From positions 800,001 through 864,000 of the forward strand of contig CAVRCJ010000010.1 of NCBI GenBank assembly GCA_963719515.1: a stretch of 64,000 bases of DNA, written 5' to 3'. This document shows, one piece after another, positions 47,047-55,451 of the stretch; positions within the stretch are counted from its first letter, which is position 1, and each line of letters starts with the position of its first letter. The translations under genes and the position numbers were made by a program. The notes under the pieces are model-generated. The model was not told where the DNA came from. It searched no databases and worked only from the letters and a program-made list of their open reading frames with translations. The stretch is from an uncultured cyanobacterium. Lineage in GTDB: Bacteria > Cyanobacteriota > Cyanobacteriia > CAKZMO01.

Positions 47047-48126
47047 ATGAGCGCCTCTCTGCAAACCATCCTCTTCCTCGCCGCTAACCCCAAAGACACC
47101 GCCCGCCGCCGTCTGGACCAAGAGCTTCGCGACATCGACGAGGGCCTACAGCGCTCCAGGAACCGCGACCAGTTCACCCTAGAGAAAAAGCTGGCGGTGC
47201 GCCCTCGTGATATTCAGCGGGCCATGCTGGATGTGGGGCCGCAGATTGTTCACTTCTCGGGCCACAGCGACGGGGAAATGGGGCTGCAGTTTGAAGACGA
47301 GGTGGGCAACGCCAAGCTGGTGGACGGGGCGGCGCTGGCGAGGCTGTTTGCGCTGTTTGCCGATCAGGTGAGCTGCGTGGTGCTCAACGGCTGCTATTCC
47401 CAGGCGCAGGCCGAGGCGATCGCCCAGCATGTGCCCTACGTCATCGGTATGAGTAAGGACATCGACGAGGATGCGGCGATCGCCTTTGCGGTGGGCTTTT
47501 ATGACGCGTTGGGGGCGGGGCGGGATGTGGAGTTTGCCTATAAGCTGGGCTGCACCGCCATCAGTTTGGAGGGGGTGGAGGGATATCTGACGCCTATCCT
47601 GCTAAAGCACGCTCAGGAGGAAGTGACCGCTACGCCTATCCCCGCCGCTTCTAGTCCTGTGAACCATGAGGCGGACGGCTCCATTGAGGTTTTCATTTCC
47701 TATTCCCACAAAGATGATGCCTTACAAGAGGAGCTGATCGCCCATTTGTCTAGCCTGCGGCGGCGCGGAAATATCACCGCCTGGTATGACCGTGCTGTGG
47801 AGGCAGGAGCGGAGTGGGAAGCGCAGATTAAAGACAAGCTGGAAACGGCTCAGGTTATTCTGATGCTCATCAGTCCGGCTTTCATGGCGTCTGATTACTG
47901 CTACGACATCGAGATGCAGCGAGCGCTGGAACGCCACGAGGAGGGTACGGCGCGCGTAATTCCGGTTATTCTACGCCCCTGTGACTGGAGAGAGGCCCCG
48001 TTTAGCAAGCTAAAGGCGATGCCAGAAGACGGTAAACCCGTGACGCAGTGGGGCGATCGCGATACGGCGTTTTTGAATGTGGTGCAGGGCATTAAACGGG
48101 CACTGGAGTCGCTGACAAAAAAGTAG
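47047..48126 (+). CDS. CHAT (caspase-like) + TIR domain protein; ends in a slippery A_AAA_AAG plus stop
   Basis: ILFLAANP, HFSGH, LNGCYS; TIR motifs VFISYSHKD, SDYCYDIEM, VIPVILRPCDW. Confidence 0.92.
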   Translation: MSASLQTILFLAANPKDTARRRLDQELRDIDEGLQRSRNRDQFTLEKKLAVRPRDIQRAMLDVGPQIVHFSGHSDGEMGLQFEDEVGNAKLVDGAALARLFALFADQVSCVVLNGCYSQAQAEAIAQHVPYVIGMSKDIDEDAAIAFAVGFYDALGAGRDVEFAYKLGCTAISLEGVEGYLTPILLKHAQEEVTATPIPAASSPVNHEADGSIEVFISYSHKDDALQEELIAHLSSLRRRGNITAWYDRAVEAGAEWEAQIKDKLETAQVILMLISPAFMASDYCYDIEMQRALERHEEGTARVIPVILRPCDWREAPFSKLKAMPEDGKPVTQWGDRDTAFLNVVQGIKRALESLTKK

Positions 48127-48179
48127 ACCGTTCTTTGCGTGCTGGTGCGGGAGCAAAGGACGACGGGCTAACGTACCGG
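48105..48179 (+). promoter_or_regulatory. Putative programmed -1 ribosomal frameshift signal
   Basis: GGAG 48105-48108, AAAAAAG 48117-48123, TAG; stem 1 48129-48138/48153-48162; stem 2 48142-48149/48172-48179. Confidence 0.8.
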
Positions 48180-49019
48180 GGGGATGATTCGCCTTTTATT
48201 ACGGGGACGCCGATTTCTCATCCGCGCTATTTCTTTGGCCGACGCCGGGTCGTGAAACGGCTGTTTAACTTGCTGAAGACCCATCCGCTGCAGAATGCGG
48301 CCATTATTGGCCAGCGGCGCTCGGGAAAGACGTCGCTGCTGAACTATTTGCGCACCGTTACCACGACGCCTGCCGCAGCGCTGCGACCGGGGCAAAAGGC
48401 GGACTGGCTACCGCAGCCGGAGGCCTACCGCTGGATCTTCGTAGATTTCCAGGATGCGCGGCTGGCGCGGCGGGAGGGGCTGCTGCGGCATTTGCTAGAG
48501 GCGATGGAGTTAGCGGTGCCGGAGCCTTGTGACCTGGAGCGGTTTATGGAGCAGGTGAGCGGCTGCGTGACGCGGCCTACGGTGGTGTTGATGGATGAGA
48601 TTGGGGAGGCGCTGGGCACCTACTCGGAGCTGGATGATGAGTTTTGGAATAGCCTGCGATCGCTGGCGACAACGCAGACGGACGGAAATTTGGCCTTTGT
48701 GCTGGCGACGCCGGAGAGCCCGGTTGGCCTAGCGCGGCAGACGGGGCACAGCTCGCCGTTTTTCAATATCTTTGGCTACACGGCGACGCTGGGGCCGTTG
48801 AAAGAAGAGGAGGCGCGGGCGCTGATGGGGCGATCGCCCATTCCTTTTATGGAGGCGGATACGGTCTGGATGCTGGAGCAGAGCGGGGGCTGGCCGATTT
48901 TGCTGCAGATTTTGTGCCGGGAGCGGCTGTTTGCCCTGGAGGAGGGGGACGATAGCGAGGACTGGCGGCAGGAGGGGCTGGCGCAGATGCAGCCGTTTAC
49001 GCATTTGCTAAATGGCTAG
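48123..49019 (+). CDS. STAND-like P-loop ATPase domain in the -1 frame relative to CHAT-TIR
   Basis: SPFITGTPI, FFGR, Walker A GQRRSGKTS, Walker B VVLMDE, SGGWP; only a weak TTG start at 48135. Confidence 0.85.
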   Translation, partial: VDRSLRAGAGAKDDGLTYRGDDSPFITGTPISHPRYFFGRRRVVKRLFNLLKTHPLQNAAIIGQRRSGKTSLLNYLRTVTTTPAAALRPGQKADWLPQPEAYRWIFVDFQDARLARREGLLRHLLEAMELAVPEPCDLERFMEQVSGCVTRPTVVLMDEIGEALGTYSELDDEFWNSLRSLATTQTDGNLAFVLATPESPVGLARQTGHSSPFFNIFGYTATLGPLKEEEARALMGRSPIPFMEADTVWMLEQSGGWPILLQILCRERLFALEEGDDSEDWRQEGLAQMQPFTHLLNG

Positions 49020-49544: not shown

Positions 49545-49751
49545 AATGGAGCTTCGCAAGCGAACGTAGATAGGACTGGCTCGCGGGATTTTTGAAAATC
49601 CCACGAGTCGATCAAGGTATATTTGGTATTGTGGAGTCTCCAGATTATTTTGTGAGGTCCAAAAAATCGTGATGTCGGCCTACAATGATCTTGTGAGGTC
49701 TACGAATTACATAGGCTGACACAACCATTGGTATCTCTGAGGAATAGCGTC

Positions 49752-50126
49752 ATGACAGCTCACCTGTTGCCGAAACTTGATGCGTTGCCAAATAGCTTGC
49801 CCTTAGAAGGAGCAGTTCGAATTGAATTGGTGGAGGGCGTTCCAGTTTTTCGGGCATCTAGCCAAGTTCAGATTCGTATTGAAGCGCTCTTAGATAAGCA
49901 AAAGATTACGACTTTAGATTCAAATGAAGAGCAGGAATTAAGTTCTTACGAAGAGCTTGATGACTATTTGAGCCTAGTCAATCGGATCATCCGACAAGAA
50001 TTGCAATTAAAGCCATCAGTAACGGCTGCAGTTTCGCAAGATTTTCCATTGGCGGGCAGTATTTTATACTACGATGATCCATTCGGTCCTGCAGTTGACC
50101 CCGACGATTGGGGCGCTTTGCAATGA
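49752..50126 (+). CDS. Putative antitoxin upstream of VapC
   Basis: ATGA overlap with the PIN gene; acidic tail YDDPFGPAVDPDDW. Confidence 0.65.
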   Translation: MTAHLLPKLDALPNSLPLEGAVRIELVEGVPVFRASSQVQIRIEALLDKQKITTLDSNEEQELSSYEELDDYLSLVNRIIRQELQLKPSVTAAVSQDFPLAGSILYYDDPFGPAVDPDDWGALQ

Positions 50127-50515
50127 TTGTTATCGATACCCACATTTGGCTTTGGTGGGTAGACAATAGTCCGAGATTGACTCAGCACCAGCGAAAATTG
50201 CTAGAAGACCACAGGGATCAGGGCTTGGGTGTAAGTATAATCTCATGCTGGGAAGTTGCAAAGTTAGTTGAGAAGCAGAAGATTGGCTTGGGGCGATCGC
50301 TAGAGGAGTGGATGGAGGTGGCATTGAGCTATCCCGGCATTCAGCTATTAGAGCTTACGATCCCCATTGCAGTTGAATCGACGAGACTCGTGGGATTTCA
50401 CCGCGACCCGGCAGACCAATTAATTGTAGCGACGGCTAAGGTTCATGATGTTCCGCTACTAACGGCTGATGCAAAGATTTTAAGCTACGAAGGTATCAAG
50501 CTTCTGGGAGTATAA
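50123..50515 (+). CDS. vapC: Type II toxin, VapC/PIN-domain ribonuclease
   Basis: IDTHIWLW, SCWEV, HRDPADQLIVATA, LLTAD. Confidence 0.92.
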   Translation: MIVIDTHIWLWWVDNSPRLTQHQRKLLEDHRDQGLGVSIISCWEVAKLVEKQKIGLGRSLEEWMEVALSYPGIQLLELTIPIAVESTRLVGFHRDPADQLIVATAKVHDVPLLTADAKILSYEGIKLLGV

Positions 50516-50549: not shown

Positions 50550-50669
50550 GTAGGTAGCGACAGCGTAACTCAACAAAAGCGATCGCCTTCAAATTCGCTT
50601 CAGATTTAGAGAAGCGATCGCTCTTCAAAGGACCGACCGCGTTGGGTTCCTACGCTCAACTCAACCTAC
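50550..50669. repeat. GTAG REP-like inverted doublet enclosing two HIP1 sites
   Basis: GTAGG...GCGTAACTCAAC and GTTGGGTT...AACTCAACCTAC; related to 22780-22857. Confidence 0.6.
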
Positions 50670-50700
50670 GTTTGGCGCTAAGGAAAAGGTGTCAGGCTTC

Positions 50701-53075
50701 ATGACCCCACTCCAGCCTCCAAACAATGCCTACACTCACTCACCTGAGCAGCATCCTAATCTGATTCTAGGAAGCTTTCAGCTGCTTTTTTGGCTGGTTT
50801 TCTACCCTCGGCTTGGGAGAATCATATCCAGCGCCTCGACTCTTCCCTCAATAAGAACTTTCTCGCTACTGCGGCTATTTCGCCAGCAGCGATGGCATCG
50901 CGGGCAAATCTGGAAGTTTTTGATTCAAGGATTTGTTCTTTTACCCGTCTTTTTAAGTCTGTTGACAGGCGTCGTTTCCTTCAGCTTAGGGACGTCTTCT
51001 TGAAGAGTGGCGACGGCGGGCGTGGCGTGGCGTATGGCGTGACGTTGGCGTGGCGGTAGGCGTGGCGTTGGCGTGGCGGTAGGCGTGGCATATGGCGTGG
51101 CGTTCGGCGTGGCGGTTGGCGTGGCGTTGGCGTGTGCGTAGGCGTGATGGTAGGCGTGGCGTTAGGTGTGATGGGAGACGTGGCGTTGGCGTGGCGTTGG
51201 CGTGGCGGTAGGCGTGGCGTTCGGCGTGGCGTTGGCGTGGCGGAAGGCGTGGCGTAGGCGTGGCATTCGGCGTAGTGGTAGGCGTGGATGGGAGGCGTGG
51301 CGTGGCGGTGGTGGTGGATCGTGGCGGTAGGCGTAGCGGGAGGCGTAGCGGATGCACGGGGCTATGGGTGAACTGGTGGCGACCAGTTCTTATGTTCGCT
51401 GGACTCACTCCATGGCACATTCTTCTGTATCGCATCGATGAACTTCCGTGCTGGAAAATTTCCAAGCCTCCTTCCACCAGACACATCGCCTTCTGGGATG
51501 AATGGCAATATCTCCCCATCCCCGATCTCGACAAGCACCTCCTCCTAGTCCTCGAGCGCAGCCCCACAGAAGGCCAAGCCGCCCTCAACTACCTCAGCAG
51601 CACCCGCCAGCGCTGGGCCGCCGATTGCCGCCCAAATCGAACTCGACACCCGCCAGCTAGAGCGCTGCGACACCCCTCAAGAATATCGCCCAAATCCACA
51701 AAGCCCTCACCCTCAGCGATCTCAGCGGCCCCGCCAACCCCCTCTTCCGCAGCTTCAACCGCCTCAGCGAAGACACCGCCGCCGCCCTCAACCAAGCCAG
51801 CCCCTACAACCAGCGCCTTGCCCTCACCGCAGTCGCCGAAAAGCCTCGACGCCCTCATCCGCGAGCTCACCCGCAGCAGCGACAAATACGCCGTCCGCTT
51901 CCGCCCCATCGCCCAGCGCTGGAGCCGCATCATCGCCCTTCACATCCAAGACCTCACCCAAGCCGCCGAGCAGCGCCAAGAAATCGACTCCCCCTACATC
52001 ATCGGCGTCCCCCTCACCGAGCGTCAGGAAATCTTCGTCGGTCGCATCGATATCAGCGCCCGCATCGAGCAGCTCCTCCTCGATCGCCGCCGCCCGCCCC
52101 TATTGCTCTACGGCCAGCGCCGCACCGGCAAAACCTCCCTGCTCCACAACCTAGGCCGCCTGCTGCCCAACAGCGTCGTGCCTCTATTCGTCGACCTCCA
52201 AGGCCCCGCCTCCAGCGCCAGCGACCACGCCGGTTTTTTGTACAACCTAGCCCGTGGCATGGCCACCTCCGCCCAGCGCCAGCGCAGCCTCTCCCTCCCC
52301 CCTTTGAGCCGAGAGACCCTCACCGCCGACCCCTTCACCAGCTTCGACGAATGGCTCGACGCCGTAGAAGCCACACTACAGGGCAGCACCGCTCTGCTCA
52401 CCTTCGACGAATTCGAAGTACTCGACCAAGCCCTCACCACGGGCCGCTTCAGCGAGACCCTTGTACTCGGCATGCTCCGCAACCTCATCCAGCACCGCCC
52501 CCGCTTCAAAGTGCTTTTCGCAGGTTCTCACACCCTCGAAGAATTCCAGCGCTGGAGCAGCTACCTCATCAACGCCCAGACCCTGCACCTGGGCTACCTC
52601 AAAGATGACGAAACCCGCCAGCTAATCGAGCGGCCCTCCGCCGACCTCGCTCTCCGCTATCGGCCCGAGGCCTGCGATCGCGTCCTCGCCCTCACGAAGG
52701 GGCACCCCTTCCTGGTGCAGCTGCTCTGCGCCGAAATCGTGGTGCTCAAAAACGAGCAGGACCCCAGCGTCCGCCGGCTGGCCACCCTTAAAGACGTCAA
52801 CGCCGCCGTCCCCGAAGCCCTGAGCAGCGGCAGCATGTTTTTTAGCGACATTGAAGGGAACCAGCTCAGTGAGACTGCGACCAAACTGCTGCACTACATG
52901 GCCGCTCAAGGTGAAGGGGCGATCGCTAATCCTTCAGCGCTGGCTCAGCACTGCGACAACGCAGACTTCGCAGCAGCGATCGCCCTTTTACAGCAGCGAG
53001 AGCTAATCGACGCCGCCGAGGAGCGGGTATCAAATTCGAGTGGAGCTAATCCGGCGGTGGTTTGAGCCGCGCTAG
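50701..53075 (+). pseudogene. Multiply frameshifted membrane-anchored P-loop ATPase gene with GVA(x)-repeat region (pseudogene or local assembly errors)
   Basis: Protein-like text switches frame near 50815, 50870, 51010-51350, 51620-51840 and 53020; SPYIIGVPL, GQRRTGKTS, LLTFDEFE, TKGHPFLVQ; final YQIRVELIRRWF is in another frame. Confidence 0.8.
51010..51350 (+). repeat. Low-complexity GGCGT / GGCGTGGCGTT tandem array encoding Gly-Val-Ala-rich repeats
   Basis: Dozens of GGCGT(G/T/A) units. Confidence 0.9.
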
Positions 53076-53150
53076 CGAGTCTGCGAGCTACTAGCGCACT
53101 ACATCAGCTCACAGACCTAGAATTAAAGGGAATTGCGCACCTCCCCACAC

Positions 53151-55451
53151 ATGAAATCCTCCCCTATAACGCAAGATCTAGTTTTGATTGGCGGCGGCCA
53201 TAGCCACGCGATCGTCCTCAAGCAGTTTGCAATGAACCCGGTACCGGGAGTGCGCCTCACCCTGATTACCAATGTCTCCCACACCCCCTACTCCGGGATG
53301 CTGCCGGGGTATGTGGCGGGCCTGTATACCTTTGACGAATGCCACATTGACCTATGGCCCCTATGCCACTCAGCGGGGGCAAGGCTAATTTTAGACCGGG
53401 CCTCCGGCTTAGATTTGAGCCACCAGCGGGTGCACTGCGCTCAGCATCCCCCCATCGCCTTTGACCTCCTCTCTATCGACATCGGCAGCACCCCCGCTAC
53501 CACGGGCATTGACGGCGCAGAGCACTTAATTCCGGTAAAGCCCATCTCGAAGTTTCTCACCCGCTGGGATGCCCTAGTGGAAAGTCTAATAGGGCAGCCG
53601 CGATCGCCTTTGGCCCTGGCCGTCGTGGGCGGCGGTGCGGGGGGCGTTGAGCTGGCGTTGGCGATAGAGGCCCGCTTCCGGCGGCTCAGTCAGCAGACTC
53701 AAAAAGCGAGGAATCTCGACATTCATCTGTTTCAGCGTGGGGACAAAATTCTGCCCAACCGTTCCCAAATGATGCGTCGCCAAGTCAAGCGACAGCTCCA
53801 GCAGCGCCGCATGATGCTGCACACCGGGCAGAAGGTGACCGCCATAAAGTCTTTTAAAGATTCTGGGTCTAGGCCAGAGGGCCACCCGCTCAGCGTCGTG
53901 ACCCAGCAAGATAAGCTCCCCTGTGACGCGGTGTTTTGGGTGACGGGGGCTTCGGCAGCGCCTTGGATCGCCACCTCGGGCCTTGAAACCGACGGGCAGG
54001 GCTTTATTGCCGTCAATTCCGCGCTCCAGTCCTCCCACCCCAGGGTGTTTGCCGCCGGAGATATCGCCACCCTGCTGGAGCACCCTCGCCCCAAGGCCGG
54101 CGTTTTCGCGGTGCGTCAGGGCCAGCCCCTCTACGACAACCTGCGGCGATCGCTTTTAGGCCAGCCGCTAAAGCCCTTCATCCCCCAAAAGCAGTTTTTA
54201 ATCTTGGTGGGAACGGGGGACGAGCGGGCGATCGCCTCGCGGGGACCGTTTGCTTTGGGGCCTTCCTCGCTGCTGTGGCGCTGGAAAGACCGCATCGACC
54301 GCAGGTTTATGGCGCAGTTTGCCCCCCAGGAGGCCAATGCTGCCGCCGATGCTGCGATGGCGTCACCCTCTAAGGGACAGGCCCCCATCATGTCCTGCGG
54401 CGGCTGCGGCGCAAAAGTAGGCAGTGCGGCCCTCAGCGCGGCGTTGACCCGAGTTCGTGTGGAATGCTCCGGCGTCATCCCCGCCGACGTGGTGCTAGGT
54501 CTAGAGGCCGCTGACGATGCAGCGGTGATACGCCCCCCGGCTGACCAGCTCTGGGTTCAAACCGTGGACTACTTCCCGGCGCTGATTGACGATCCTTTTG
54601 TGCTGGGACAAATTACGGCCCACCACTGCCTCAACGACCTGTGGGCCATGGGGGCCTCCCCCCACAGCGTACTGGCGATCGCCACGTTGCCCTACGCCAC
54701 CGCCGCCAAGCATGAAGAGCTGCTGTACCACCTGCTTTCCGGGCTAGTTAAGGTGCTGCATCAGGAGGGCGCGGCGCTGCTGGGGGGCCATACGATAGAA
54801 GGCGAAACGCTGGCCCTTGGCCTCACCTGCAACGGCACCGTCCCGCCCGAACGGCTGCTGCGGAAGTCCGGCCTTCAGGCGGGGCAGTCTCTGATTCTCA
54901 CGAAGGCTCTGGGCACCGGCACCCTATTTGCGGCGGCGCAGCAGCAGCGGGCCAAAGGGCGCTGGATTGAAGGGGCGATCGCCGCCATGCTGCGCAGCAA
55001 CGCCGCCGCTGCGGCCTGCCTGCAGAAATACGGAGCTGCGGCCTGCACCGATGTCACCGGATTTGGCCTACTGGGGCACCTGTTGGAAATGGTGTCGGCG
55101 ACCGCAGACGCAGACGCCCAGCCGGTGGGAGTTACCCTAATGTTGAATGCTCTACCGCTGCTAGAGGGCACAGCCGACACCCTCGCCCAGGGCATCTTTA
55201 GCTCCCTCCACCCTCAAAACCAGCAGGCCGAGATTCGCCTCCACAACCCTCAGCAGGCCCAGCTGCCGCACTATGCCGCGCTCTTCGACCCGCAGACCTC
55301 TGGCGGGCTGCTGGCGGCGGTCCCGCAGGAGAAGGCTGAGCCCTGCCTAGCGGCGCTGCAGGCTTTGGGCTATGACCACAGCGCCATCATTGGCACCATA
55401 GACTCGCTGGGAGATCTTACCCCGGACAAACCCGTTAGGATTGAGGGGTAA
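53151..55451 (+). CDS. selD: Selenide, water dikinase fused to an N-terminal pyridine nucleotide-disulfide oxidoreductase domain
   Basis: GGGHSH, YSGMLPG, RPKAGVFAVRQG; SCGGCGAKV, DDAAV, TDVTGFGL, DPQTSGGLL. Confidence 0.94.
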   Translation: MKSSPITQDLVLIGGGHSHAIVLKQFAMNPVPGVRLTLITNVSHTPYSGMLPGYVAGLYTFDECHIDLWPLCHSAGARLILDRASGLDLSHQRVHCAQHPPIAFDLLSIDIGSTPATTGIDGAEHLIPVKPISKFLTRWDALVESLIGQPRSPLALAVVGGGAGGVELALAIEARFRRLSQQTQKARNLDIHLFQRGDKILPNRSQMMRRQVKRQLQQRRMMLHTGQKVTAIKSFKDSGSRPEGHPLSVVTQQDKLPCDAVFWVTGASAAPWIATSGLETDGQGFIAVNSALQSSHPRVFAAGDIATLLEHPRPKAGVFAVRQGQPLYDNLRRSLLGQPLKPFIPQKQFLILVGTGDERAIASRGPFALGPSSLLWRWKDRIDRRFMAQFAPQEANAAADAAMASPSKGQAPIMSCGGCGAKVGSAALSAALTRVRVECSGVIPADVVLGLEAADDAAVIRPPADQLWVQTVDYFPALIDDPFVLGQITAHHCLNDLWAMGASPHSVLAIATLPYATAAKHEELLYHLLSGLVKVLHQEGAALLGGHTIEGETLALGLTCNGTVPPERLLRKSGLQAGQSLILTKALGTGTLFAAAQQQRAKGRWIEGAIAAMLRSNAAAAACLQKYGAAACTDVTGFGLLGHLLEMVSATADADAQPVGVTLMLNALPLLEGTADTLAQGIFSSLHPQNQQAEIRLHNPQQAQLPHYAALFDPQTSGGLLAAVPQEKAEPCLAALQALGYDHSAIIGTIDSLGDLTPDKPVRIEG

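Follow-up and report, generated by a model that had tools for sequence, protein, structure and literature searches.

A probable programmed -1 frameshift between a CHAT-TIR gene and an ATPase gene in a cyanobacterial two-ATPase cassette

Organisation of the CHAT-TIR/ATPase1 junction

This study focused on two adjoining genes in a 64,000-nt stretch of DNA (the window) from an uncultured cyanobacterium (assembly GCA_963719515.1, contig CAVRCJ010000010.1, positions 800,001 to 864,000). The first open reading frame (ORF) specifies a protein with a CHAT (caspase-like protease) domain and a TIR domain, the second specifies an ATPase (ATPase1), and a larger ATPase gene (ATPase2) follows downstream. 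A preliminary description, made from the sequence of the window alone, had proposed that the first two are joined by programmed -1 ribosomal frameshifting at a slippery heptamer. All coordinates given below are positions in the window unless another locus or replicon is named, and the listed features lie on its plus strand. The features of the junction are as follows.

47047..48126, + strand: CHAT-TIR short product, 0-frame ORF of 359 aa, stop TAG counted (ORF and profile searches)
47119..47529, + strand: CHAT (caspase-like protease) domain, residues 25-161 (Pfam PF12770, PADLOC 'chat', structure model)
47689..48003, + strand: TIR domain core, residues 215-319 (PF13676; the ThsB-like profile match extends to residue 357)
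48105..48108, + strand: GGAG, possible Shine-Dalgarno (SD)-like stimulator, not conserved (sequence)
48117..48123, + strand: slippery heptamer A_AAA_AAG (sequence and relatives)
48124..48126, + strand: 0-frame stop TAG (sequence; adjoining stop in 17 of 20 loci)
48129..48162, + strand: putative stimulatory hairpin with a 10-bp stem (comparison of 20 loci)
48142..48179, + strand: possible second stem of a pseudoknot, 48142-48149 with 48172-48179, unproven (duplex energy)
48123..49019, + strand: post-slip -1 frame, comprising a 24-residue variable linker and the ATPase1 module, 298 codons and stop (ORF, AAA_16)

The CHAT-TIR ORF closes with the codons ACA AAA AAG TAG, which places the heptamer (48117-48123) in the phase of the 0 frame and the TAG directly after it. 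The ATPase1 ORF lies in the -1 frame relative to the CHAT-TIR ORF and is open from 48096 to 49019, the prior stop being a TAA at 48093-48095. Its sole start codon ahead of the conserved domain is a TTG at 48135, which is buried in the 5' arm of a stem formed by CGUUCUUUGC (48129-48138) and GCAAAGGACG (48153-48162), beginning 5 nt past the heptamer. A second complementarity exists between CUGGUGCG (48142-48149) and CGUACCGG (48172-48179), two G-U pairs included, and a GGAG at 48105-48108 ends 8 nt ahead of the heptamer. The predicted products are a short protein of 359 aa and a transframe protein of 359 + 298 = 657 aa, with the junction reading ...SLTKK-VDRSLR.... In all of these coordinates, from heptamer, stop and frame to TTG, GGAG and both complementarities, and in the two product lengths, the preliminary description proved accurate. 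The exact 359-aa CHAT-TIR protein also occurs as a called gene in a public protein collection.

Both strands of the 5.28-Mb genome were scanned for heptamers of the form X_XXY_YYZ accompanied by a 0-frame ORF of at least 150 codons that ends no more than 6 codons on, and by a -1 frame open for at least 200 codons. Eight sites genome-wide combine all three properties; two of them resemble insertion sequence (IS) transposases with an A7 site, one is the CHAT-TIR site, and another is the second candidate on contig C14 described at the end. Because there are just eight such sites in the whole genome, the layout of the junction is more than would be expected by chance. The run of A residues does not appear to be an assembly error. 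Logan contigs of three sequencing runs (from one study, one run possibly being the source sample) cross it without an indel; the seven A's that an error in the assembly would predict were not seen, and other loci show the same state. The genome, 100% complete by marker genes, has 45 tRNAs and a sole tRNA-Lys, with anticodon UUU (Aragorn). In Escherichia coli dnaX, a sole tRNA-Lys that pairs better with AAA than with AAG makes A_AAA_AAG highly shift-prone (PMC5009743).

Conservation of the heptamer and of the reading frames

Scanning species-representative genomes with the -1 ORF yielded 271 relatives, the 80 best of which were retained; metagenomes contributed another 47. Twenty loci of the frameshift type were collected from these, comprising the window, 7 of the 80 kept genome loci and 12 of the 47 metagenome loci; one of them, L005, belongs to a cultured strain of Sphaerothrix gracilis. 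The named hosts of the relatives are all cyanobacteria, apart from that of L017, which is labelled as an Actinomycetota metagenome-assembled genome. The upstream ORF in frameshift loci encodes either CHAT-TIR (about 360-460 aa) or TIR alone (about 155-170 aa), and identity falls to 49% for the TIR and to about 55-62% for the ATPase, the mean column identity of the latter being 77% across 8 frameshift loci.

In all 20 loci the TIR ORF carries A_AAA_AAR at its end and the ATPase follows in the -1 frame; the heptamer is A_AAA_AAG in 19 of them and A_AAA_AAA in L004, which has seven A's. The codon just ahead is GCA in 10 loci, TCA in 4, ACA in 3, CCA in 2 and GGA in 1, and so specifies five different amino acids while its third position is always A. 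A-ending codons are not the rule in these genes: their share among Thr/Ser/Ala/Pro/Gly codons is 6% in the gene pair of the window, and pooled over the genes of the frameshift loci the NNA share is 0.20 and the AAA share of Lys codons 0.53. The chance expectation for the heptamer is about 0.11 per locus, given x-K-K. These figures argue that the heptamer is conserved at the nucleotide level beyond the need of the protein. The 0-frame stop adjoins the heptamer in 17 of the 20 loci (13 TAG, 4 TAA); it comes one codon later in L105 and L123 and five codons later in L093, which means that the heptamer is retained even when the stop shifts.

The frame relationship is equally constant. The linker from the heptamer to the first conserved ATPase residues measures 69-90 nt and is poorly conserved, with indels, and it contains no -1-frame stop in any of the 20 loci; stops are present in the +1 frame in 12 and in the 0 frame in all 20. 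No start codon is conserved across these loci, and in the window and L001 the only start candidate is the TTG at linker codon +6, which lies in the stem and has no SD ahead of it. A tblastn search with the TIR domain found 23 other loci in which a homologous TIR precedes the ATPase; 19 of these have the heptamer and the -1 arrangement, 3 are in-frame fusions, 1 has an in-frame TAG, and +1-frame or spacer-separated arrangements number 0 among the 23. The comparison of homologous gene pairs that the preliminary description had suggested is in its favour: 19 other loci share the heptamer, the -1 phase and a hairpin with covariation, and homologues are not confined to in-frame fusions or to separately initiated genes that lack the heptamer.

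Two further sets of loci were considered as recoding candidates and were not adopted. In L009 and L092 a CHAT ORF overlaps the ATPase frame by about 160 nt, but its last 30 codons contain no heptamer and an ATG could serve as the start. In the Nostoc loci L028, L052, L069 and L075 the ATPase frame opens without a start, as recoding or readthrough might allow; the helix-turn-helix part of L028, L052 and L069 carries several in-frame stops, which indicates decay and not recoding.

RNA structure downstream of the heptamer

A hairpin lies 2-8 nt past the heptamer in each of the 20 loci, 5 nt being the commonest spacer, with energies of -8 to -22 kcal/mol and 17 distinct pairs of arms. Eighteen of the loci could be aligned over the hairpin; L105 and L123 were excluded, as their stems differ in sequence and do not align. 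In this alignment the stem is paired in 88% of cells and changes on both sides are seen in 7 of its 10 pairs, while the whole tested structure is 80% paired, compared with 36-50% in controls that displace the 3' partners by 1-3 columns. The same stem is recovered unaided by RNAalifold, with 6 of 9 pairs compensated.

The evidence for a second stem is of a different kind. The preliminary description had seen an H-type pseudoknot in the window, and RNAfold, given the window alone, does favour the pairing of 48142-48149 with 48172-48179 over stem 1, a preference that fits either a pseudoknot or simple competition between stems. When loop-to-downstream duplex energies were compared with those of 300 dinucleotide shuffles per locus, the duplex of the window (-14.1 kcal/mol) was no better than its shuffles (-11.7 +/- 2.1), 13% of which were as good (p 0.127), and p was at or below 0.05 in just 3 of 20 loci. 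A locus's own loop and downstream segments pair about as well as mismatched ones (means of -10.06 and -9.88). In the 18-sequence alignment 67% of the second stem is paired and its covariation is slight; the register of the window is one column off. The motif GCAC(C) in the loop and its partner (G)GUGC, 6-9 nt past the stem, are kept in 12-14 of the 18 sequences with few compensatory changes, and the GUG of the conserved GUGC is in 12 of 20 loci an in-frame GTG, at linker codon +20. A pseudoknot is possible, then, but the claim as first made is not established by these comparisons. The GGAG upstream of the heptamer had likewise been put forward as an SD-like stimulator, and as a conserved element it was rejected, being present in 8 of 20 loci (GGA in 16). 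Its fourth base varies like the third position of a Glu/Asp codon, and for this reason the motif can be explained by the codon.

A covariance model of heptamer and hairpin was run over 151 genomes sampled from the class and matched nine, once each: the window, four known loci, L149, L150, L151 and L147. L149 is a new TIR-ATPase1 locus. L150 (G066) and L151 (G101) have CHAT-TIR ORFs that end in GCA AAA AAG TAG with a hairpin after, the stem having a sequence of its own, and their -1 ORF encodes a divergent ATPase just 24% identical to ATPase1. These three loci and L147, in which the ATPase has been lost, imply that the heptamer-hairpin cassette travels with the 3' end of the TIR gene and can decay; judging from the sequences recovered, it seems to move in this way between partner modules.

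Domains of the two proteins

Pfam searches of the first ORF detected CHAT (PF12770) at 27.7 bits, against a cut-off of 24, over a partial profile (108-255 of 289), and TIR_2 (PF13676) with an E value of 2.3e-18 and 67.3 bits against a cut-off of 28. In PADLOC, the TIR matched the ThsB1 profile (E 1.8e-60) and the N-terminus the 'chat' profile (E 2e-22). The CHAT His (HFSGH) and Cys (LNGC) are kept in all nine CHAT-bearing relatives, and the Glu of the TIR motif C-Y-D-I-E, which we take to correspond to the NADase Glu, is invariant in 13 of 13 aligned sequences. A model of the CHAT-TIR protein (pLDDT 74.8) found its best PDB match in the activated SAVED-CHAT filament 8tl0 (E 2.4e-11), the second domain matching plant TIR. 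The assignment of both domains in the preliminary description is upheld, and the residues that it named are conserved.

The term 'STAND-like', which it had applied to the ATPase, is not. Only AAA_16 passes its Pfam threshold (34.7 bits, cut-off 32.6); nSTAND1, the STAND-specific profile, scores 22 bits, below its cut-off of 27.1, and there are weaker matches to AAA_22 and TniB. The ATPase1 model (pLDDT 97) most resembles the archaeal Walker ATPases 2qen and 2fna, followed by the plant NLR ZAR1, ORC/Cdc6 and MuB. No sensor repeats (TPR, WD40, LRR) were found in ATPase1, which in the model consists of an AAA+ base and a helical lid and ends about 275 residues past the linker. By its predicted fold, ATPase1 is a short Arch_ATPase/ORC-like AAA+ module. 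Searches against PADLOC (E <= 0.01) gave no match to an Avs profile, and only weak, partial ones to others: PDC-S27 for ATPase1 (E 0.0034 over 41 residues) and PDC-S01 for ATPase2 (E 0.0014 over 27). No NCBIfam family was found for either ATPase, for a 116-aa ORF, or for the VapB-like and PIN-domain ORFs that lie between the ATPase genes.

In-frame fusions and the ATPase1 family

Relatives of the ATPase module numbered 2216 in an exhaustive profile search. Of the 150 best representatives, 138 have 47 or more residues ahead of the module, which nearly always reaches the C-terminus, exceptions being, for example, P0010 and P0015 with an extra C-terminal GerE domain. In the sequences surveyed, therefore, ATPase1 modules appear to be rarely free-standing. 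The N-terminal domains recognised by Pfam in 40 of these proteins are CHAT (9), BTAD (7), protein kinase (5) and TIR (2), with TCAD9, ParA, helix-turn-helix, Mrr nuclease, trypsin, caspase and HD-CE also represented. An in-frame N-terminal segment of some 70 residues, with the appearance of a helix-turn-helix, is present in most loci of Nostocales and Microcoleus.

Several relatives encode as a single frame what the window divides between two. P0158 (668 aa), P0163 (652 aa) and P0168 (670 aa; from its sequence alone) are in-frame proteins with the order CHAT-TIR-ATPase. The ATPase parts of P0158 and P0163 are 70% and 69% identical to that of the window, and the CHAT-TIR parts of all three 58-65%; their junctions read AKN, GKE and RKR, not KK-stop. 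In-frame TIR-ATPase fusions are found in L010, L067 and L110, the junctions of L010 (GCT AAA AAG) and L067 (GCT AAG AAG) being non-slippery. To judge from these genes, the CHAT-TIR-ATPase fusion is a natural protein. A quick maximum-likelihood tree (IQ-TREE) placed 17 frameshift rows in one clade with 96% support, together with the three TIR fusions and L013; within it L010 and L067 sit among the frameshift rows, while L105 falls outside the clade without a resolved position. As the rooting was by midpoint only, no order of events is claimed.

Interpretation and alternatives

The most probable explanation, held at roughly 0.85 on the strength of the sequence comparisons, is that a programmed -1 ribosomal frameshift of the dnaX/IS3 type yields a short and a long product. 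The sequences themselves show the anatomy of the junction, its conservation beyond coding need, the covariation of the stem, the constancy of the frame and the presence of in-frame equivalents; the slip itself, its efficiency and the roles of its two products are inferred. Ribosomes translating the CHAT-TIR ORF would meet A_AAA_AAG immediately before the 0-frame stop and 5 nt ahead of a stable hairpin. The majority would terminate there, releasing a free 359-aa CHAT-TIR protein, and a fraction would slip back by one base on the two Lys codons, both read by the sole tRNA-Lys (anticodon UUU), and continue through the variable linker into ATPase1 to give a 657-aa CHAT-TIR-ATPase. ATPase1 may be the regulatory or oligomerising module of a conflict system, a role suggested by its family, in which it nearly always forms the C-terminal part behind an exchangeable output domain and is followed by ATPase2. 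The long form would then be a regulated, assembly-competent effector, with the short form as a source of additional free TIR/protease subunits or as a competitor, and the frameshift efficiency would set the ratio of the two. The central claim of the preliminary description is in this way strongly supported by comparison (19 loci, four more by the RNA model, and the in-frame fusions), whereas the pseudoknot, the GGAG and the STAND label that accompanied it are not. Its picture of a few ATPase subunits nucleating many free TIR/protease subunits at a set ratio is a conjecture.

A more ambitious version, which we regard as doubtful, makes the frameshift a regulatory or sensing step of an immune-type system, a design possibly reused in the lineage, given the similar layout of an unrelated gene pair in this genome (L130/L131, below). 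The proportion of ribosomes slipping at two Lys codons that depend on the sole tRNA-Lys could set the amounts of ATPase-tethered and free effector, and damage to tRNA-Lys, ribosome stalling or altered termination caused by infection could shift this ratio and so license or trigger the TIR/protease.

Three other explanations of the arrangement have to be considered. Two separately translated genes would look similar if ATPase1 had its own start (TTG 48135 here, the GTG at codon +20 in relatives) or were reached by termination-reinitiation coupling, the hairpin masking an SD-like sequence in its 3' arm until a terminating ribosome melts the stem, and Lys-Lys being merely a conserved C-terminus. 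Such an arrangement would suit the calling of the CHAT-TIR ORF as its own gene in public data and the TTG found 9 nt past the stop in the window, L001, L002, L003 and L105, yet no start codon is conserved in the 20 loci and the TTG of the window and L001 is stem-buried and lacks an SD. The GTG is more suggestive, since in the 12 of 20 loci that have it an SD-like GAGG or AAGG lies in the 3' arm of the hairpin 13-14 nt upstream, and separate initiation by melting of the hairpin could operate there; that gap, however, is long for initiation. Coupling also leaves unexplained the third-position A of the five preceding codons together with AAA AAG in 19 of 20 loci, the -1 phase that is constant in 20 of 20 despite indels in the linker, and the loss of the slippery run in in-frame fusions, and the ATPase1 module is almost never free-standing. 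Taken as a whole, separate translation is improbable.

Slippage by RNA polymerase, adding an A within the A-run, would give the same two products, and the A-runs themselves, the seven A's of L004 and the ten A's of a second site in the genome are in keeping with it. A run of six A's falls short of those known to slip, which exceed 7 A's (PMC3711429), the terminal G of the heptamer is kept in 19 of 20 loci, and transcriptional slippage has no need of a heptamer in phase, a structure spaced at 5 nt or a single tRNA-Lys(UUU), which are hallmarks of ribosomal shifting; it is accordingly rated as very unlikely. Least probable of all is a broken gene or artefact, that is, an in-frame fusion that lost one A by mutation, phase variation or assembly error and now makes the short protein alone. 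In-frame fusions do exist, three 1-nt insertions in ATPase2 reveal that indel mutations or errors occur in this assembly, and decay is evident in L147 and L013. Against this, the same A6G and -1 phase are found in 19 independently assembled loci and in 3 intact loci from the RNA model, none of which has an A7 in-frame allele; the contigs of three runs cross the site without an indel, the ATPase is strongly conserved (77% mean column identity in 8 loci), and the hairpin covaries.

Some observations weigh against a programmed frameshift, besides the GTG codons and their SD-like sequences. The hairpin of the window is on its own not significantly stabler than shuffled sequences (62-nt fold, z = -1.43), which means that its support comes from comparison with other loci, and the upstream SD-like stimulator of the dnaX type is not conserved. 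The frameshift loci are relatives of one another, and counts of them therefore overstate their independence. Decay is also seen within the family: L147 retains heptamer and hairpin, but its -1 frame is cut soon past the linker and the ATPase is lost, while three Nostoc loci (L028, L052 and L069) have degraded N-termini and an intact ATPase. The three frame disturbances in ATPase2 imply that the system may be partly degenerate in the genome of the window itself, and for this reason the case for frameshifting rests on the other loci. Finally, in L013 the TIR ORF and the ATPase share one frame with a single TAG between them (about 700-790) and have no start codon after the TAG. This TAG may mark stop-codon readthrough, as another route to two products, or it may be a nonsense mutation.

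Relation to known systems

Phage tail assembly chaperones of the G/GT type are made by a -1 frameshift near the end of a short ORF, which gives a minor long and a major short form that work together at a set ratio. The CHAT-TIR site is similarly close to the end of its short ORF, but the proteins are unrelated and no phage genes lie beside the locus. In IS3-family elements (OrfA/OrfAB, e.g. IS911), A_AAA_AAG with a structure downstream gives a short 0-frame product and a transframe fusion that adds a catalytic C-terminal domain. The CHAT-TIR locus shares the slippery motif, the short 0-frame product, a predicted C-terminal-extending fusion and the downstream structure, but is not a mobile element, and differs in having no transposase or inverted repeats and in belonging to a conserved cyanobacterial chromosomal cassette with housekeeping surroundings.

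Outside of mobile elements and phages, conserved programmed frameshifts are few in bacterial chromosomal genes. PMC5009743 names dnaX, copA and csoS2 as examples, and the IS3 family among frameshift users. The closest parallel is E. coli dnaX (tau/gamma), which has the identical A_AAA_AAG, a hairpin a few nt on, and a single tRNA-Lys(UUU) that decodes AAG (PMC5009743 and PMC3711429). As predicted for the CHAT-TIR site, it gives two products with a common N-terminus and encodes an AAA+-type protein. The outcome differs, as a ribosome that shifts on dnaX stops almost at once and makes the short product, whereas a shift at the CHAT-TIR site would give the long one; the upstream SD-like stimulator of dnaX is also not conserved at CHAT-TIR loci (8 of 20).

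At the protein level, the nearest equivalents are the in-frame cyanobacterial fusions P0158, P0163, P0168, L010, L067 and L110, which have the same domains in the same order and lengths of 652-670 aa, compared with the predicted 657. They require no recoding, have no KK-stop, and in L010 and L067 the A-run is interrupted. Effector-NTPase conflict systems of multicellular bacteria (Kaur et al. 2020, PMC7159879) and antiviral STAND proteins (Avs) are alike in joining an exchangeable effector (TIR, CHAT, caspase, restriction endonuclease, kinase, trypsin) to an AAA+/STAND P-loop NTPase, and the conflict systems are enriched in filamentous cyanobacteria. ATPase1 departs from them in its small size (about 275 residues), the lack of sensor repeats, an nSTAND1 score below the cut-off and the second, larger ATPase gene that follows. 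The SAVED-CHAT protease 8tl0 is the best model match for the CHAT domain, but the CHAT-TIR protein is without SAVED and carries CHAT and TIR in one polypeptide. The likeness to Thoeris ThsB lies in the profile match of the TIR (E 1.8e-60), with the TIR protein alone compared.

Among the papers covered by full-text searches, none was found to describe frameshifting in a gene of the TIR, CHAT or STAND type, in agreement with the earlier view that the system is undescribed. No such case is mentioned in the parts consulted of PMC5009743, PMC7159879, PMC3711429 or bioRxiv 10.1101/2025.10.02.679949, nor in the supplementary files of PMC3711429 covered by a term search, and the word 'frameshift' occurs 0 times in the conflict-system survey PMC7159879. 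The mechanism is a canonical, textbook one; it is the gene family and the setting, a two-ATPase conflict cassette, that are new. If the frameshift is real, gene callers will split or misannotate members of this family, and surveys of conflict systems by domain architecture will miss a fusion that exists at the protein level only. A TIR/caspase-like effector made in two forms, with and without its ATPase, would offer a direct way into the question of how effectors of this kind are held inactive and later assembled, and the relatives that are in frame, or that have an in-frame stop, would form a natural experiment on the keeping of two products. The site itself would be a short canonical one with a natural series of stem variants, possibly useful as a tool in cyanobacteria. 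Both the recoding field and work on bacterial immunity would have an interest in it.

Cassette neighbours and ATPase2

Neighbourhoods were counted in 68 loci with at least 3 kb of flank. A larger, paralogous ATPase2 gene lies downstream on the same strand in 64 of the 68, and this recurrence, together with the exchangeable N-terminal domains of ATPase1, indicates a cassette of two ATPase genes, the first with an exchangeable output domain. The cassette is unnamed in PADLOC and NCBIfam. In the window it is flanked by housekeeping genes, and its further features are the following.

49728..50515, + strand: VapB-like ORF and PIN-domain ORF between the two ATPase genes (PIN E 1.6e-14)
51260..53065, + strand: ATPase2, downstream partner, with three 1-nt insertions in its N-terminal part (homologues in related loci)

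A PIN gene stands between the two ATPase genes in 18 of the 68 loci, and in the window the VapB-like ORF overlaps the PIN ORF. The pair may be part of the system or a lodged toxin-antitoxin pair. Compared with L005, L006 and L008, the ATPase2 gene of the window has single-base insertions at about 51625, 51682 and 51839, and the conserved protein runs through frames 0, +1, +2 and back to 0 between 51600 and 51860. Frame 0 stays open throughout, and there specifies about 75 proline-rich, non-homologous residues. The insertions could reflect decay of the gene, compensated mutation or assembly error. About 24 tandem copies of a 12-nt unit lie at the 5' end of ATPase2 (51007-51350); in relatives the 5' repeat encodes (G-V-A-x)n, with the conserved segment WVNWWRP after it. 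Just before the repeat, in another frame, is a hydrophobic ORF (50569-51003). Beyond the cassette, and unrelated to it, are a 772-aa ORF (53133-55451) with pyridine-nucleotide disulphide oxidoreductase and AIR-synthase-type (SelD-like) domains and, next to it, a rhodanese-domain ORF.

Other candidate recoding sites in the genome

A second candidate recoding site is present in the same genome (G000) on contig C14, minus strand, at about 68012-72273 (L130/L131), in a gene pair unrelated to CHAT-TIR. An acidic, low-complexity ORF of 874 aa ends in ...EKKK, at ten A's, a G and a TAG, followed by a short hairpin, and the -1 frame continues for a further 539 aa that weakly match Hsp70 (E 0.0024). 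The same succession of A-run, G, stop and hairpin is found in four genomes of the same genus and one of the same family (L132-L135 and L137), and open frames of 650-2600 aa are found in more distant homologues. A run of ten A's makes transcriptional slippage no less plausible here than ribosomal shifting. Two copies of a transposase-like gene pair, with an A7 site and the -1 layout, occur on contigs C6 (about 30-1348) and C16 (about 68257), and probably represent an insertion sequence with its own frameshift.

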